A stretch of 64,000 bases of DNA from a virus: the UHGV virus genome UHGV-0098755; one strand, 5' to 3'. Under the pieces are notes generated by a model. That model made no database searches and had not been told where the DNA came from. It saw only the letters and a program-made list of their open reading frames with translations. The number at the start of each line of letters is the position of its first letter. The stretch's first letter is position 1. A program made the position numbers and the translations under genes. This document shows, piece by piece, positions 7,311 to 56,043 of the stretch.

Positions 7311-7645
7311 TTCATAATCACCAGATAAGCAGATTTAGTAGTTTCAACACGATAAATTTCGTGACGAAGTTTAGTTATACTTTTAATAACAGAACTAATT
7401 ATATTCTGCCCATCTTTAAAGCGGTTTTTCTTATCAATAAAAACTGCGCCAGTCATCTTTTTGTGAAGCTCAACTGGATACTTCGTCACAATAATAGCAT
7501 CATACACAGAAGGATGAATACTATTCACCAGAGTGTCATTCATTAAAGTTATTCTAATGAACTGTGCTGTTTCAGAGTCAAGCGCTCTATGATCGCCAGT
7601 ATCATTTTCAAGACAATTATCAATTATATCAGTTAAATTCATCAT
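7307..7645 (-). CDS. hypothetical protein (112 aa), cd.x
   Basis: ORF track. Confidence 0.6.
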   Translation of the reverse strand: MMNLTDIIDNCLENDTGDHRALDSETAQFIRITLMNDTLVNSIHPSVYDAIIVTKYPVELHKKMTGAVFIDKKNRFKDGQNIISSVIKSITKLRHEIYRVETTKSAYLVIMK

Positions 7646-14794: not shown

Positions 14795-17059
14795 TCATAA
14801 TTTACAGGATGAACAATCTTCAGCTTTTGGAGTTTCTATTTCATAATCATCAGTACCAGAACCATCACGGGTATTATGATAATAGAAATTTTTTCCGCCA
14901 AAATACCAGAAATACAAAAGGTCATCAATCATTATTGACATTGGAACCTTTCCTTTTGGAAAAATCTGCGGGTCATAGTATGTATTCGCTGAAGCTGATT
15001 GACATACCCATTTCAGCATAATAGCTACCTGCGTAAGATAAGGTTTATTACCTTTCTTAGCTAATTTCCACGTATAATCATAGAGGTCTATGTTATGTTC
15101 AATATTGGGCACGACTTGATTAAAGGAACCCTCTTTTGATTCTTTAACAGAGACTGGTCCACGTGGAGGCTCGATACCGTTTGTACTGTTAGAAACTTGG
15201 GAAGATGACTCACACGGCATAAGTGCTGATAATGTGCTATTACGGATGCCAAAGAGCTTAAGGTCTTCCCGCAGCGCCGACCAGTCACAAACGTATTTTG
15301 GAGCTGCGATTTGGTCAATCTTTTTATTGTACCAGTCGATAGGTAATTCGCCTCGAGACCAACGAGTGTCTGAATAATATTCGCAAGGTCCTTTTTCTTT
15401 GGCGAGCTTAATGGATGCTTTAATGAGTCCATACTGTAATCTCTCAAATAGTTCATGTGTTAAATCGTTAGCATCTTCATAAGAAGCAAAGTTACTTGCC
15501 AGCCAAGCTGCATAGTTGGTAACACCTACACCGAGGTTACGACGCTTTTTAGCTTTTTCTGCTTCAGGAACTGGATATCCTTGGTAATCCAAAAGATTAT
15601 CAAGAGCACGAACTTGAACTTCTGCCAATTCATTAATTTTATCTTGGTCTTGCCAATCGAAGTTATCCAACACAAATGCAGATAACGTACACAATCCAAT
15701 TTCAGCATCAGGGCTATTCACATCATTTGTTGGAATAGCAATTTCACAACACAAGTTACTTTGACGAATAGGTGCCTTTTCACGAATAAACGGAGTATAG
15801 TTATTCGTATTATCAATGAACTGTACATAAATCCTCGCTGTTCCTGAGCGTTCAGTCATGAGCAATTCAAACAGTTCACGGGCTTTAATACGCTTTTTAC
15901 GAATATTAGGGTCTTTTTCTGCGGCTTCGTATAATTCACGGAAACGGTCTTGGTCTTTAAAATAAGAATAATAAAGTTCGCCACCCATTTCATGCGGACT
16001 GAACAAAGTAATGTAGTCGTTCTTTCCAAAACGTTCCATCATCAAATCATTCAGCTGAACGCCATAATCCATATGACGGATACGGTTTTCTTCTACGCCT
16101 TTGTTATTTTTCAAAACGAGAAGATTTTCAACTTCCAAATGCCAAATAGGATAATAAGCAGTAGCAGCGCCGCCACGAATTCCGCCTTGTGAGCATGATT
16201 TAACGGCAGTCTGAAAATGTTTCCAAAAAGGAATAACACCAGTATGGCGTACTTCACCTGTGCCAATCTTAGAACCTTCGGCACGAATCATACCAACGTT
16301 AATGCCGATTCCAGCTCGTTTAGAAATATACTCAACAATTGAAGCGGAAGCCTTATTGATAGACTTCAGCGAATCACCTGCTTCAATAACAACACACGAG
16401 CTAAATTGCCGAGTCGGAGTACGACATCCAGCCATAATAGGAGTTGGCAGTGAAATCTGTCGAGTAGATACTGCTTCATAAAAACGAATAACATGTTTTA
16501 ATCTATCAACAGGTTCATCTTGATGCAATGCCATTCCAATAGTCATAAATGCAAACTGTGGAGTTTCATAAATTTGACCAGTGGTTTTATCTTTAACGAG
16601 ATATTTTTCTTTTAATTGCATCGCCCCGGAATAAGTAAATTCCATATCCCGCTCATGCTTAATTTTTGATTCTAAAAATGTAATTTCTTCTGCTGAATAT
16701 TTTGACAGCAGTTCAGGGTCGTATTTACCTTCATTTACGCAGTAAGAAATATGGTCAATAAATGAACGCGGTTCATACTGTCCGTAAACATGCTTACGAA
16801 GAGCAAACATTAAACAGCGTGCAGCTACGTATTGATAATCAGGCTCTTCAACTGAAATAGAATTCGCAGCAGCCTTAATGACAATAGTCTGAATGTCATC
16901 AGTTGTCATTCCATCACGGAGATATGATTTAATATTTTCATATAATTCATAAGGATCTACAGATGTTCCTTCGGCTGCCCAAGATAAAACTTTAATAATT
17001 TTTTGCGGGTCAAAGCTCTGAGAAACACCACTACTTTTGATAACATTAATTAATTGCAT
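14795..17059 (-). CDS. nrdA: ribonucleotide reductase large subunit
   Basis: 754 aa; [24 protein letters not shown]-cone N-terminus; C-terminal CSSC. Confidence 0.97.
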   Translation of the reverse strand: MQLINVIKSSGVSQSFDPQKIIKVLSWAAEGTSVDPYELYENIKSYLRDGMTTDDIQTIVIKAAANSISVEEPDYQYVAARCLMFALRKHVYGQYEPRSFIDHISYCVNEGKYDPELLSKYSAEEITFLESKIKHERDMEFTYSGAMQLKEKYLVKDKTTGQIYETPQFAFMTIGMALHQDEPVDRLKHVIRFYEAVSTRQISLPTPIMAGCRTPTRQFSSCVVIEAGDSLKSINKASASIVEYISKRAGIGINVGMIRAEGSKIGTGEVRHTGVIPFWKHFQTAVKSCSQGGIRGGAATAYYPIWHLEVENLLVLKNNKGVEENRIRHMDYGVQLNDLMMERFGKNDYITLFSPHEMGGELYYSYFKDQDRFRELYEAAEKDPNIRKKRIKARELFELLMTERSGTARIYVQFIDNTNNYTPFIREKAPIRQSNLCCEIAIPTNDVNSPDAEIGLCTLSAFVLDNFDWQDQDKINELAEVQVRALDNLLDYQGYPVPEAEKAKKRRNLGVGVTNYAAWLASNFASYEDANDLTHELFERLQYGLIKASIKLAKEKGPCEYYSDTRWSRGELPIDWYNKKIDQIAAPKYVCDWSALREDLKLFGIRNSTLSALMPCESSSQVSNSTNGIEPPRGPVSVKESKEGSFNQVVPNIEHNIDLYDYTWKLAKKGNKPYLTQVAIMLKWVCQSASANTYYDPQIFPKGKVPMSIMIDDLLYFWYFGGKNFYYHNTRDGSGTDDYEIETPKAEDCSSCKL

Positions 17060-17376
17060 AAGTCCTCAACTTGAAAATCGTCTTTAAACAATCGGTTAAC
17101 TATATGAGCTATTATATCACCATGACACGGCTTTGGTTTACATGTGCATCCTAGCCTCATTCCACGTAAAGGCTCTAAATGTGCTTTAGTTATTTCTCCG
17201 GATTTAATTCGACGTATAAAATCTTTTTTGAATAATTCAATGGCAGCCTCCCGGCTGCCAGCATCTTTACCGACGTAATTTCCCCAAAATGTACCGCGGT
17301 GAATATTAACATCAAAGTCGGATTTGTATTTATTCACTACCCGGCATAGACGGCCCACGCTGGAATAATTCGTCAT
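17050..17376 (-). CDS. hypothetical protein (108 aa) with CxC...PCHGD motif
   Basis: ORF track; [14 protein letters not shown] cysteine/histidine cluster. Confidence 0.55.
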
Positions 17377-17593
17377 ATTGTTTTTCCGTTAAAACAGTAA
17401 TATCGTAGTAACAGTCAGAAGAAGTTTTAACTGTGGAAATTTTATTATCAAAATACTCACGAGTCATTTTATGAGTATAGTATTTTTTACCATAAATGGT
17501 AATAGGCTGTTCTGGTCCTGGAACTTCTAACTCGCTTGGGTTAGGAAGTGTAAAAAGAACAACGCCAGAAGTATCTTTAAATCGTAAAATCAT
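17330..17593 (-). CDS. hypothetical protein (87 aa)
   Basis: ORF track; overlaps the preceding ORF by 47 nt, so one start may be mis-set. Confidence 0.5.
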
Positions 17594-17901
17594 ATTGCCA
17601 TTTTCCCTTTAATTGCTGGATGCGATTCATAATTTTCAAGGATAAAATCTTTCGGTTTCATGTATTCAGTTAACCAGTAAAGCTGTGTTTCGGTGTCACA
17701 ATTTCCAAACTCTATAGGCCAATCAATTTTAAGTTCACATAGTTCTTTAGGCTCACGACGTAAAATTTCTTTACATTGCTCAGTATGATTCATATAGATG
17801 TGAGTATTACCACCAGAAAATATCAAATCTCCTGGGATAAGATTACACATCTTAGCTACAATATGAACTAACGAAGCATATGATGCAATATTAAATGGAA
17901 G
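17590..17901 (-). CDS. td: thymidylate synthase, exon 2
   Basis: Encodes [21 protein letters not shown]...KGKMAI; the first codon follows the intron's terminal G at 17902. Confidence 0.9.
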
Positions 17902-18917
17902 CATTATGTTCAGATAAGGTCGTTAATCTTATCCCGGAATTATATCCAGCTGCATGTCACCATGCAGAGCAGACTATATCTCCAACTTGCTAAAGCAAGT
18001 TGTCTATCGTTTCGAGTCACTTGACCCTACTCCCTAAAGGGATAGTCGTTAGGCATTTATGTAGAACCAATTCCACTTATCAGATTTTACACGGTAAGTA
18101 ACTAATCCGGATGAAATTTCAAAATATCTAGCTGCATCAGCTGCACATTCAAAAATAATCCCATCACATGAAATCTTTTTAATATTATTAGGCTTTTTAC
18201 CTTTCATCTTTTCTGATATTTTAGATTTAGTTTTGTCTGAATGCTTATGATTAAAGAATGAATTATTTTCACCTGAACGATTTCTGCATTTACTACAAGT
18301 ATAAGCAGAAGCTTGTATGCGAACACCGCATTCACAAAACTTATGGGTTTCTGGATTCCAACGCCCGTTTTTACTTCCGGGTTTACCGTAAAGAGCTTTC
18401 CGACCATCAGCGCCAAGCTTAAGCATCTTAGCTTTAACAGTTTCAGAACGTTTCTTAATAATTTCTTCTTTTAATGGATGCACAGAATATGTATCACCAA
18501 ACGTTGCATCAGCAATATTGTATCCATTAATTTTAGAATTAAGCTCTTTAATCCAAAAATTTTCTCGTTCAATAATCAAATCTTTCTCATATGGAATTTC
18601 TTCCAAAATAGAGCATTCAAACACATTACCGTGTTTGTTAAAAGACCTTTGAAGTTTTATAGAAGAATGGCATCCTTTTTCTAAGTCTTTAAAATGCCTC
18701 TTCCATCTCTTTTCAAAATCTTTAGCACTTCCTACATATACTTTATTGTTTAAAGTATTTTTAATCTGATAAATTCCACTTTTCATAAATACCTCTTTAA
18801 ATATAGAAGTATTTATTAAAGGGCAGTCCTACAATTTAGCACGGGATTGTCTACTAGAGAGGTTCCCCGTTTAGATAGATTACAAGTATAAGTCACCTTA
18901 TACTCAGGCCTCAATTA
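17902..18917 (-). mobile_element. group I self-splicing intron of td (1016 nt) carrying the I-TevI gene
   Basis: Starts UAAUUGAGGCCUGAGUAUAAGGUGACUUAUACUUG... after exon-1 GGU; ends ...AUG before exon 2; the length matches my recollection of the T4 td intron. Confidence 0.9.
18049..18786 (-). CDS. I-TevI GIY-YIG homing endonuclease
   Basis: 245 aa, MKSGIYQIKNTLNNKVYVGSAKDFEKRWKRHF... GIY-YIG N-terminus, zinc finger and C-terminal DNA-binding region. Confidence 0.95.
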   Translation of the reverse strand: MKSGIYQIKNTLNNKVYVGSAKDFEKRWKRHFKDLEKGCHSSIKLQRSFNKHGNVFECSILEEIPYEKDLIIERENFWIKELNSKINGYNIADATFGDTYSVHPLKEEIIKKRSETVKAKMLKLGADGRKALYGKPGSKNGRWNPETHKFCECGVRIQASAYTCSKCRNRSGENNSFFNHKHSDKTKSKISEKMKGKKPNNIKKISCDGIIFECAADAARYFEISSGLVTYRVKSDKWNWFYINA

Positions 18918-19466
18918 ACCCAAGAAAACATCTACTGATCGTTGATACCATTGTAAATCAAGATAACCATTACGCACATTAAACTGATAGAACATATGAC
19001 AGGGCGGTAATGCCATTTGATTGATTTCAGCTGGATTCCATGCTGAAACGATTTGACGTCGATCAGTTGGTAATTTTTTAATACGATCAATAGTTTCAAC
19101 TAATTGATCCACACCACCGAAATCACGCCATTGTTTACCGTATATAGGACCAAGTTCACCACTATGATATCCTAGGTCTTTAGCCTGGTTTTCATAGTTA
19201 TCGTCCCAAATAGTTTTACCTTGAATAAGACTACCATGAGTGCGAAGACGTAAATCATTAACATTGGTAGAACCGGAAATAAACCATAGAAGCTCAGCAA
19301 TGCAAGCTTTCCAGGCGAGCTTTTTGGTTGTTACCGCAGGAAAACCTTTGGTTAAATCCCAACGCAATTTAGTACCGAACAAAGCAATTGTTCCTGTGCC
19401 TGTTCGGTCATCGGTTTCGTAGCCATTTTCAAAAATGTCTTTAATTAAATCTTGGTATTGTTTCAT
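18918..19466 (-). CDS. td: thymidylate synthase, exon 1
   Basis: 183 codons MKQYQDLIKDIFENGYE...QRSVDVFLG; the frame is closed by the intron's first UAA. Confidence 0.9.
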
Positions 19467-19510
19467 TTAGTACCTTATATAAATTATAATACATTTTATG
19501 AAGCTAATAA

Positions 19511-19858
19511 TTAATACGGTTTAGCATCAAATTTTCTCTCAATTTCAGGCGCGAAATATAATTCTTTACCGCGTTTGGAAAAACGACCAATAATATGATA
19601 ATTATTCTCATCAAACGTGATATTACCAATATCCATAGCTTTCAACCAAATATCGATATTTCTATCCAGCTTTATGTCAAAATTCCAATACGGAGAACTA
19701 TTACCGAAAATACTGCAAGCGGATTCAGTGAAACAACTGCTATAAATCTTGTCTTTAGGAACTACTAATTGATAGACGCCTTTAATAAACTGAGGACCCT
19801 GCCACTTTGGCTGTTTTGCGTCTTCTTCTAATAGAATAGGGTAATAATTAAAATTCAT
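19511..19858 (-). CDS. uncharacterised protein (115 aa from ATG at 19858; track lists 119 aa from GTG at 19870) between frd and td
   Basis: ORF track; no recognisable motif; separate SD/promoter-like sequence before td. Confidence 0.6.
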   Translation of the reverse strand: MNFNYYPILLEEDAKQPKWQGPQFIKGVYQLVVPKDKIYSSCFTESACSIFGNSSPYWNFDIKLDRNIDIWLKAMDIGNITFDENNYHIIGRFSKRGKELYFAPEIERKFDAKPY

Positions 19859-19877
19859 ATTTTCCGCCACGCGTTAT

Positions 19878-20704
<827 letters not shown>

Positions 20705-20715
20705 ATTATCTCCTA

Positions 20716-21048
20716 TTAAAAAGGATCAGGAACATATCCACTAGCTTTAATCATTTTGATTAACGTTAGCAGTCCTTTATTAACTGCTTGTGAGATTTCA
20801 TTAAAAACTTCATCACTAAAAAGTTCTAACACACCCTTCTGAACTTTTAATTTACACCCAACAATTTCGTCATCACCTATAGTAAATTCGTTTCCGCCAA
20901 TTCCACCGAAAAACTTAATTACACCAGTTAACTGTTTTCCACGAGAATATGGGTCATGTGATAAAGTAATATGAGTCACCCCAGGTACAGTTTTAAATTG
21001 GCAGCGGATGTTTACTTGGGCAATTCCAGTTACATGAATGTCAGACAT
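20716..21048 (-). CDS. hypothetical protein (110 aa), frd.2-like
   Basis: ORF track. Confidence 0.6.
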   Translation of the reverse strand: MSDIHVTGIAQVNIRCQFKTVPGVTHITLSHDPYSRGKQLTGVIKFFGGIGGNEFTIGDDEIVGCKLKVQKGVLELFSDEVFNEISQAVNKGLLTLIKMIKASGYVPDPF

Positions 21049-25430: not shown

Positions 25431-28400
25431 ATGGCCGAGATTAAAAGAAAGTTCAGAGCAGAAGATGGTCTGGACGCAGGTGGCGATAAAATAATCAACG
25501 TAGCTTTAGCTGATCGTACCGTAGGAACTGACGGTGTTAACGTTGATTACTTAATTCAAGAAAACACAGTTCAACAATATGATCCAACTCGTGGATATTT
25601 AAAAGATTTTGTAATCATTTATGATAACCGCTTTTGGGCTGCTATAAATGATATTCCAAAACCAGCAGGAGCTTTTAATAGCGGACGCTGGAGAGCATTA
25701 CGTACCGATGCAAACTGGATTACGGTTTCATCTGGTTCATATCAATTAAAATCTGGTGAAGCAATTTCGGTTAACACTGCAGCTGGAAATGACATTACGT
25801 TTACTTTACCGTCTTCTCCAATTGATGGTGATACTATCATTCTCCAAGATATTGGAGGAAAACCTGGAGTTAACCAAGTTTTAATTGTAGCTCCAGTGCA
25901 AAGTATTGTAAACTTTAGAGGTGAACAGGTACGTTCAGTACTAATGACTCATCCAAAGTCACAGCTAGTTTTAATTTTTAGTAATCGTCTGTGGCAAATG
26001 TATGTTGCTGATTATAGTAGAGAAGCTATAGTTGTAACACCAGCGAATACTTATCAAGCGCAATCCAACGATTTTATCGTACGTAGATTTACTTCTGCTG
26101 CACCAATTAATGTTAAACTTCCAAGATTTGCTAATCATGGCGATATTATTAATTTCGTCGATTTAGATAAACTAAATCCGCTTTATCATACAATTGTTAC
26201 TACATACGATGAAACGACTTCAATACAAGAAGTTGGAACTCATTCCATTGAAGGCCGTACAACGATTGACGGTTTCTTGATGTTTGATGATAATGAGAAA
26301 TTGTGGAGATTGTTTGACGGGGATAGTAAAGCGCGTTTACGCATTATAACGACTAATTCTAATATTCGTCCAAATGAAGAAGTTATGGTATTTGGTGCGA
26401 ATAACGGAACAACTCAGACAATTGAACTTCAGCTTCCAACTAATATTTCCGTTGGTGATACTGTTAAAATTTCCATGAATTACATGAGAAAAGGACAAAC
26501 AGTTAAAATCAAAGCTGCAGGTGAAGATAAAATTGCTTCTTCAGTTCAATTGCTGCAATTCCCAAAACGTTCAGAGTATCCGCCTGAAACTAAATGGGTG
26601 ACTGTTCAAGAATTGGTTTTTAACGGCGAAACTAATTATGTTCCAGTTTTACAGCTTGCTTATATAGAAGATTCTGATGGAAAATACTGGGTTGTACAAC
26701 AAAACGTTCCAACTGTAGAAAGAGTTGATTCTTTAAATGATTCTACTAGAGCAAGATTAGGCGTAATTGCTTTAGCTACACAAGCTCAAGCTAATGTCGA
26801 TTTAGAAAATTCTCCACAAAAAGAATTAGCAATTACTCCAGAAACATTAGCTAACCGTACTGCTACAGAAACTCGCAGAGGTATTGCAAGAATAGCAACT
26901 ACTGCTCAAGTGAATCAGAACACCACATTCTCTTTTGCTGATGATATTATCATCACTCCTAAAAAGCTGAATGAAAGAACTGCTACAGAAACTCGTAGAG
27001 GTGTTGCTGAAATTGCTACGCAGCAAGAAACTAATGCAGGTACTGATGATACTACAATCATTACTCCTAAAAAGCTTCAAGCTCGTCAAGGTTCTGAATC
27101 ATTATCTGGTATTGTAACTTTTGTATCTACTGCAGGTGCTACTCCAGCTTCTAGCCGTGAATTAAATGGTACGAATGTTTATAATAAAAACACTAATAAT
27201 TTAGTCGTTTCGCCTAAAGCTTTGGATCAGTATAAAGCTACTCCAACACAGCAAGGTGCAGTAATTTTAGCAGTTGAAAGTGAAGTAATTGCTGGACAAA
27301 GTCAGCAAGGATGGGCAAATGCTGTTGTAACGCCAGAAACGTTACATAAAAAGACATCAACTGATGGAAGAATTGGTTTAATTGAAATTGCTACGCAAAG
27401 TGAAGTTAATACAGGAACTGATTATACTCGTGCAGTCACTCCTAAAACTTTAAATGACCGTAAAGCAACTGAAAGTTTAAGTGGTATAGCTGAAATTGCT
27501 ACGCAAGTTGAATTCGACGCAGGCGTCGACGATACTCGTATCTCTACACCATTAAAAATTAAAACCAGATTTAATAGTACTGATCGTACTTCTGTTGTTG
27601 CTCTATCTGGATTAGTTGAATCAGGAACTCTCTGGGACCATTATACCCTTAATATTCTTGAAGCAAATGAGACACAGCGTGGTACACTTCGTGTAGCTAC
27701 ACAAGTTGAAGCTGCTGCAGGAACATTAGATAATGTTTTAATAACTCCTAAAAAGCTTTTAGGTACTAAATCTACCGAATCGCAGGAAGGTGTTATTAAA
27801 GTTGCAACTCAGTCTGAAACTGTGGCTGGAACGTCAGCAAATACTGCTGTATCTCCAAAAAATTTAAAATGGATTGTGCAGAGTGAACCTACTTGGGCAG
27901 CAACTACTGCGATAAGAGGCTTTGTTAAAACTTCATCTGGTTCAATTACATTCGTTGGTAATGACACAGTTGGTTCTACACAGGACTTAGAGCTATACGA
28001 GAAAAATAGCTATGCAGTATCACCGTATGAATTAAACCGTGTATTAGCAAATTATTTGCCGTTAAAAGCAAAAGCTGCTGATACAAATTTATTGGATGGT
28101 CTAGATTCATCTCAGTTCATTCGTAGGGATATTGCACAGACGGTTAATGGTTCACTAACCTTAACCCAACAAATGAATCTGAGTGCCCCTCTTGTATCAT
28201 CTAGTACTGCTACGTTTGGTGGATCAGTTTCGGCAAATAGTACATTAACTATTTCTAATACTGGAACGGCAACTCGTCTGATTTTTGAGAAAGGACCTCA
28301 GACTGGAACTAACCCAGCGCAGACGATGGCTATCAAAGTTTGGGGAAATCAGTTTGGTGGAGGATCAGATACAGCACGTTCTACTGTATTTGAAGTTGGT

Positions 28401-48792: not shown

Positions 48793-48844
48793 CACTTATC
48801 CTCGTTTGGTTTCGGGAATATTATACTCCAATAATCATAAAGCT

Positions 48845-55986: not shown

Positions 55987-56043
55987 AACTTTATGTAAAA
56001 ATGCTTTAAAAATTTCATGGTATAATGAATCTAAGTCCTTCCA

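Follow-up and report, generated by a model that had tools for sequence, protein, structure and literature searches.

Why does an open reading frame (ORF) of about 115 codons lie between the genes for dihydrofolate reductase (frd) and thymidylate synthase (td) in the virus genome UHGV-0098755, when in phage T4 the stop codon of frd and the start codon of td overlap? The DNA analysed here, which we call the window, is a stretch of 64,000 nt from this genome, and an initial annotation made from its letters had taken the ORF for an insertion into a tightly coupled operon junction, possibly an anti-defence or host-takeover gene. The peptide and coordinates given for the ORF were correct, as judged by the ORF list and by Pfam matches to both neighbours. 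The reading as an insertion did not hold: the same ORF is conserved at this position in reference T-even genomes and has diverged orthologues there in six other genera. The ORF is the gene td.1, and our overall best reading, to which we give a probability of roughly 0.6, is that it encodes an ancestral, dispensable, non-enzymatic binding protein co-expressed with the genes for deoxythymidine monophosphate (dTMP) synthesis.

The junction in the window is made up of the following features, including the td Shine-Dalgarno (SD) sequence and two copies of an 8-nt repeat.

19511..19858, minus strand: td.1 coding sequence, 115 codons plus TAA, a member of PHROG 1928
19878..20459, minus strand: frd, dihydrofolate reductase, the upstream neighbour of td.1 (Pfam DHFR_1, E 3.9e-19)
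18915..19466, minus strand: td exon 1, ATG at 19466, the downstream neighbour (Pfam Thymidylat_synt, profile positions 1-175); the ORF enters the intron by a few bases
19467..19510, minus strand: 44-nt spacer between td.1 and td, with a MotA-box-like GCTTCA (19499-19504), TATAAT (19483-19488) and SD AAGG (19473-19476)
19877..19884, minus strand: direct repeat TAAATGAA, left copy, at the end of frd
19462..19469, minus strand: direct repeat TAAATGAA, right copy, at the start of td

The ORF corresponds to td.1 of phage T6 (AY262134.2, hypothetical protein ABI48938.1), with 98% amino acid identity. In T6 the gene has the same position and length and is followed by an identical 44-nt spacer before td, and the protein differs from that of the window at two residues only, E12K and A103T. 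The gene is also RB32ORF229c, and its product matches the PHROG 1928 profile (function unknown) at E 2e-35, with residues 4-111 aligned to profile positions 2-125 of 126. td.1 is an already catalogued gene, annotated in hundreds of genomes, and neither the T6 record nor PHROG gives it a function.

The T4 junction is as the initial annotation described it: in NC_000866, frd occupies 145109..145690 and td begins at 145112, which gives the 4-nt ATGA overlap. Alignment of the junction with T4 and other T-even phages, a check proposed at the outset, identified the ORF as a conserved gene at this position, the outcome that the initial annotation had named as refuting its reading. When the window was aligned with T4 and T6 together, a single clean block proved absent from T4 but present nearly base for base in T6, the 44-nt spacer included, and the flanking frd and td sequences of T4 are nearly identical up to the junction. 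The missing block is 415 nt long and carries td.1, the SD sequence of td and a promoter-like element. Removal of 415 nt between the two 8-nt copies of TAAATGAA yields the exact T4 junction.

A DNA-level search found 359 phage records that cover at least 80% of the junction segment; all allele and record counts given here are of database records, GenBank/RefSeq duplicates included. By tblastn we found 580 records, comprising 363 at 90% identity or more (349/363 at 95% or more) and 217 below 60%, the latter from phages of Klebsiella, Enterobacter, Salmonella, Serratia, Citrobacter, Erwinia and Edwardsiella. The gene is conserved between frd and td in T-even genomes including T6, RB3, RB14, RB18 and RB32/RB51. 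More distant orthologues, 26-47% identical in the loci examined, fill this slot in six further named genera of the Tevenvirinae (Jiaodavirus, Kanagawavirus, Gelderlandvirus, Winklervirus, Kagamiyamavirus and Moonvirus-type). Every annotated distant genome that we opened has a homologue between frd and td, which in most cases shares a few bases with the genes on either side (Jiaodavirus Mineola; Kanagawavirus Q7622 and PEi20; Gelderlandvirus STML-198; Winklervirus CHI14; Kagamiyamavirus EcS1; Klebsiella phage kv_tblp2). In Tequatrovirus and close relatives, the alleles at the frd-td slot were counted as follows.

td.1 at 90% identity or more: 363 records
an unrelated 68-aa ORF (PHROG 9550) at 90% identity or more, with ATGA overlaps on both sides: 135 records, among them some Dhakavirus such as JS98
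the fused, T4-type junction: 32 records

For the fused junction we used a 40-nt probe that spans it and is unable to match the other alleles; about half of the 32 records are T4 itself or the near-identical T4T, RB55 and RB59.

These distributions bear on whether the block could be a recently inserted accessory cassette, with an anti-defence or host-takeover role, that split an ancestral frd-td junction. The 8-nt direct repeat flanking the block can be read as a target duplication, three alleles occupy the slot among close relatives, the copy number varies from 0 to 3, and the protein is small, phage-only and without known domains. However, the 26-47% identical orthologues sit in this slot in at least six further named genera, where their starts and stops overlap those of frd and td, and td.1 has diverged in parallel with frd. 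Only the 32 fused-junction records, mostly T4 and near-identical relatives, show the empty state, the junction itself looks like a deletion between 8-nt repeats, and the word repeated there is a common one where a stop meets a start. Neither terminal inverted repeats (only short AT-rich chance matches) nor a mobility gene flank the block, and Pfam found no nuclease or transposase domain in td.1 or its relatives in the family. We also saw no patchy distribution in conflict with the flanking genes of the kind that a mobile insertion would leave: several genera have the gene in the same slot, with divergence parallel to that of frd. A transposon-like insertion was rejected for want of inverted repeats, and we consider recent insertion in general highly improbable.

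That td.1 is ancestral at this junction and T4 a deletion derivative is, on comparative grounds, very likely. The direction of the change is something we infer rather than demonstrate, and the evidence favours loss in the T4 lineage because of the breadth of td.1 across genera, its divergence in place and the geometry of the deletion. A 415-nt deletion between the TAAATGAA copies would have fused the frd stop to the td start, and would also have removed the SD sequence of td itself and its middle-promoter-like element.

td.1 is almost certainly a real gene. The probability that a stop-free run of this length arises by chance in 35% GC DNA is ~9e-5 for a single frame; when the 415-nt segment was shuffled 5000 times, 7 of the shuffles contained at least 115 open codons in any of the six frames. 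The comparison with T6 shows 9 synonymous and 2 non-synonymous differences (pS, the synonymous proportion, 0.142; pN, the non-synonymous proportion, 0.007; pN/pS 0.05), a ratio that indicates purifying selection. Relative to the orthologue at locus L026, td.1 has 63% amino acid identity, whereas frd of the same pair has only 49%; relative to more distant genera, the non-synonymous divergence of td.1 is similar to or higher than that of frd. A chance open frame that is never translated would be compatible with a product that lacks experimental evidence and a family that lacks a known domain. The chance of such a frame is, however, ~1e-4 to 1e-3, synonymous changes far exceed non-synonymous ones, length and motifs are retained in homologues with as little as 26% identity, and the AlphaFold2 model is confident. 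We regard a chance frame as refuted by the conservation, with a likelihood close to nil.

The start of the gene has two candidates. The reading from ATG, MNFNYYPILLEEDAKQPKWQGPQFIKG, begins at 19858, 19 nt after the frd stop, whereas the ORF list gives 19511..19870 (minus strand) from a GTG.

19868..19870, minus strand: alternative in-frame GTG start of td.1, four codons upstream of the ATG

The GTG at 19870 is probably not used, because the T6 annotation and most homologues begin at the ATG, and GGCGGA lies 4-9 nt 5' of it.

How far the family extends was best seen by exhaustive search. A word-indexed protein search recovered only 3 relatives, and an exhaustive HMMER search was required: among 1.84 billion cluster representatives (50% identity) it gave 23 matches, two of them spurious repeats and the rest 95-116 aa long. 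Named members are hypothetical proteins of T4-like phages. The matches in viral contigs all fall in large contigs of 50-176 kb, most being genomes of 158-176 kb, and the 185,579 bacterial and archaeal genomes searched contain no td.1 homologue. These searches place the family only in T4-like phage genomes. Within the window, two family hidden Markov models found no paralogue of td.1 elsewhere. One member outside the frd-td slot, P0024, was found at 1248-1577 of L029 (ENA contig ERZ27260015), a T4-like contig; it keeps a GRFEKNG hairpin, adjoins a gene for an RlaP-like nucleotidyltransferase and lies a few genes from regB.

The number of td.1-family copies in the slot ranges from 0 to 3. In most of the annotated distant genomes, the td.1 homologue is followed by a second ORF that also matches PHROG 1928 (E 1e-33 to 1e-39). 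This B paralogue keeps the invariant W and G positions and GRFxKxG and has a 19-residue insert, and by these matches the homologue and the second ORF are tandem paralogues. The paralogues are only 18-28% identical to the window protein. The largest set, three tandem paralogues of 148, 106 and 95 aa between frd and td, was seen at 2245-3288 of L028 (Logan contig SRR28387184), a divergent T4-like contig, and in another metagenomic T4-like contig the slot holds td.1, the B paralogue and the 68-aa ORF. The 68-aa ORF shares the slot with td.1 and co-occurs with td.1-family genes at L011 and L026, but it is unrelated to td.1 in sequence. It lies at 2534-2740 of L006 (vB_EcoM-fFiEco06), 2148-2354 of L011 and 4670-4879 of L026. 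Homologues with 43% identity occur in phages of the Phapecoctavirus type, phAPEC8 among them, and the ORF seems to move between phage families.

What kind of protein does td.1 encode? The initial annotation saw no recognisable motif in the ORF, and this was borne out by searches with td.1 and 14-24 homologues, which gave no Pfam, NCBIfam or PADLOC match (Pfam being searched up to E 1 for the window protein and up to E 5 for 24 family members). Comparison of the family profile with PDB sequences gave only chance matches (dynein and TagH, E at least 0.03). In 24 family members Q16, W19, G27, G91, K95 and G97 are invariant, L9, Y29, N79, F93 and F102 are nearly invariant, and R92 is usually conserved, while no acidic, His or Cys residue is conserved. 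The isoelectric point (pI) in the family is 6.5-9.5, and an acidic DNA mimic was rejected on these values.

Structure prediction, another of the checks first proposed, gave a confident model with a strand order like that of the oligonucleotide/oligosaccharide-binding (OB) fold and no significant match to a solved structure. AlphaFold2, used with the family alignment, predicted a single domain (predicted local distance difference test, pLDDT, 90.7; predicted template modelling score, pTM, 0.83) with strand b1 at residues 6-12, b2 at 27-34, b3 at 62-64, a helix at 68-77, b4 at 86-96 and b5 at 99-104. The model of the B paralogue has the same core order plus the insert (pLDDT 86.7). In the predicted secondary structure of both, the order b1-b2-b3-helix-b4-b5 fits that of OB-fold elements, as in the OB modules of RPA14/RPA32, RMI2, Stn1-Ten1, Teb1, HIN domains and bacterial SSB. 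Two structure searches returned weak match lists dominated by OB domains (by Foldseek RPA14/32, RMI, SSB, Stn1-Ten1 and the LysRS anticodon domain), and in the search against solved structures no match was significant, OB domains included. On these matches the predicted topology can be called OB-like, but they do not suffice to place the protein in the OB fold. The conserved aromatic and basic residues fall in the b1-b2 loop (W19, with K18), on b2 (Y29) and in the b4-b5 hairpin (R92, F93 and K95), where OB folds usually contact ligands.

Database labels suggest other identities. The BASEL records MZ501066, MZ501113, MZ501047 and MZ501089 name td.1 a putative homing endonuclease, the gene adjoins the intron-bearing td, and G27-V-Y-QLVV resembles the GIYQIKN of I-TevI, so that td.1 could be taken for a homing endonuclease or a degenerate GIY-YIG domain. 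The likeness to I-TevI is, however, limited to a GVY tripeptide at the start of a strand, and hhalign aligned the two over 8 columns with a probability of 0.6%. Among 24 members there is no Pfam match to GIY-YIG, HNH or LAGLIDADG at E up to 5, and the GIY-YIG profile PF01541 leaves td.1 unmatched while detecting I-TevI in the same window at 5.2e-18, a positive control. Of the GIY-YIG motifs only G27 and Y29 are conserved and the second is not; no set of Glu, Arg, His or Asn residues is invariant, neither Glu nor Asn being invariant at any position, although N79 is nearly so. The protein has 115 aa with no DNA-binding extension, its predicted fold differs from the alpha/beta fold of GIY-YIG domains, and the gene is inherited in place across genera in stable synteny, with no mobility, rather than scattered. 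A nuclease of this kind is extremely unlikely, and the label was rejected for want of the second motif, the catalytic residues and any matching nuclease profile, and because the fold prediction differs.

Product names of td.1 orthologues are inconsistent more generally: putative homing endonuclease, putative dihydrofolate reductase and putative glucose-1-phosphate adenylyltransferase all occur, none of them supported (MZ501066, MZ501113, MZ501047, MZ501089, OQ466432, OM386666, MW749000, OK272473 and NC_054937). The dihydrofolate reductase labels raised an R67-type DHFR as a candidate, which was rejected for lack of a Pfam DHFR_1 or DHFR_2 match, the adjoining frd matching at 3.9e-19.

The signals before td bear on when these genes would be expressed. 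The initial annotation had described a new SD sequence and promoter-like stretch at this place; both are present and reasonably read, but they are not new, as T6 has them in identical form. Phages with td.1 show no translational coupling of td to frd; td has AAGG six bases 5' of its ATG, and GCTTCA-N10-TATAAT stands upstream of this SD sequence. MotA-dependent middle promoters of T4 have a box, (a/t)3TGCTTtA, ~12 bp upstream of a -10 element, and we tentatively liken the pre-td element to such a promoter. The window has 5 matches to the pattern GCTTYA-N10-13-TATAAT where 0.2 would be expected by chance, and 4/5 are on the strand of early and middle transcription. The four other matches, with N12-13, lie at 7398-7422, 27640-27664 and 48820-48843 on the minus strand and at 56003-56026 on the plus strand, and are likely MotA-type middle promoters. 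A sigma-70 and terminator scan found nothing above background and left the pre-td element, which has no -35 element, uncalled.

We propose that Td.1 would be a small single-domain beta-barrel with OB-like strand order, acting by binding rather than catalysis because the family conserves no acidic, His or Cys residue. The KQxKW loop, the HG(I/V)Y strand and the GRFxKxG hairpin would probably make up the binding surface, with single-stranded nucleic acid or a partner protein as the ligand; we lean slightly towards nucleic acid, a choice that is itself doubtful. Synthesis of the protein would fall in the early or middle period, alongside that of DHFR, thymidylate synthase and ribonucleotide reductase, and td.1 would be dispensable, because T4 lives without it. 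Across several genera, td.1 is usually translationally coupled to its neighbours through start/stop overlaps. For a non-enzymatic binder that is specifically OB-like, as the model suggests, the odds appear to be about even.

Several observations count against the overall reading of td.1 as an ancestral binding protein co-expressed with the dTMP genes. TAAATGAA is a common stop/start word, with 21 copies in 64 kb, so the repeat fits a deletion but does not prove its direction. The member on L029 means that the linkage of td.1 to frd and td may be historical rather than functional. In the pre-td element, the spacing from the MotA-like box to TATAAT is 10 nt (12 nt to an overlapping TAATTT), compared with 12-13 in the other four matches, and an A replaces the T before GCTT.

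Two other functions would keep td.1 ancestral. In one, the protein would serve counter-defence or host takeover, as a small protein that binds to and neutralises some host factor, such as one involved in sensing or depleting nucleotides, with paralogues expanded and lost in an arms race. The tandem copies, 0 to 3 in number and as low as 18-28% in identity to the window protein, fit this idea, as do dispensability in T4, the missing enzymatic signature and the restriction to phages. Nevertheless, td.1 is nearly invariant within Tequatrovirus (349/363 at 95% or more) and under purifying selection, unlike typical fast-evolving counter-defence genes; its pI of 6.5-9.5 does not suit a DNA mimic; and we found no link to defence in the literature. 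PADLOC, which models defence proteins, does not match td.1. We consider such a role unlikely. A search of the literature on td.1, RB32ORF229c and PHROG 1928, and on frd together with td, found nothing; the main text of an accessory-gene screen does not mention td.1 (PMC12373910), and a review of T4 genomes gives frd and td only as auxiliary metabolism genes (PMC2993671).

In the other, td.1 would be an accessory subunit or regulator of the deoxynucleotide-synthesis machinery that binds Frd, Td or the deoxynucleoside triphosphate (dNTP) synthetase complex. Its place between frd and td, its translational coupling in many genera, the 32-frd-td-nrdA cluster and the possibility that tandem paralogues form hetero-oligomers speak for such a role. 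T4, however, assembles its nucleotide-synthesis enzymes without td.1, and one family member lies elsewhere in a T4-like contig (L029). This role, too, strikes us as improbable, and the binding protein with single-stranded nucleic acid or a partner protein as its ligand is the reading that we prefer.

The surroundings of the junction contain further features. Downstream, td is split around the gene for I-TevI.

18049..18786, minus strand: I-TevI gene within the td intron (Pfam GIY-YIG, I-TevI_ZnF and I-TevI_DNA-bd)
17590..17904, minus strand: td exon 2 (Pfam Thymidylat_synt, profile positions 176-266)

An Rfam scan of 17000-21000 at gathering thresholds was empty. Despite the plain split of td around I-TevI, it called no group I intron, presumably because the ORF inside the intron breaks it up too much for the model. 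The central 300 nt of td exon 1 (18918-19466) are 98-100% identical to the intron-less td of phage FriedrichMiescher and only 60-86% identical to the intron-bearing T4, T6 and fFiEco06, while the window has the intron and I-TevI. It seems that the td intron of the window is surrounded by exon sequence of the kind usual in phages without the intron. On the other side of frd, between frd and frd.1, lie two ORFs that T4 lacks at that place, at 20459-20704 and 20716-21048 (both minus strand); one, of 81 aa, has no Pfam match, and the other, of 110 aa, matches DUF7247. Phage FriedrichMiescher has both. As T4 lacks the two ORFs, it is reduced on that side of frd as well.

As a finding, td.1 is ordinary: it is the majority state in its genus, and the anomaly arises from T4 as the reference. 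T4 is a poor reference for the frd-td junction, where its ATGA coupling appears to be a derived deletion state, and comparisons made outward from such a derived junction would therefore misread conserved genes as insertions. The td.1 family is predicted to fold with confidence, occurs only in T4-like phages, carries inconsistent labels and is embedded in a nucleotide-synthesis operon. Since a natural null background (T4) and positive ones (T6 and the RB phages) exist, td.1 is cheap to study. At its most far-reaching, and this we think unlikely, the family (PHROG 1928) could represent an uncharacterised phage-only fold family that interacts with a host factor of nucleotide metabolism, for example in counter-defence, or a new small module that binds single-stranded nucleic acid in replication or nucleotide synthesis. 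If that were true, T4 would have hidden the td.1 family from sixty years of genetics by having deleted td.1.
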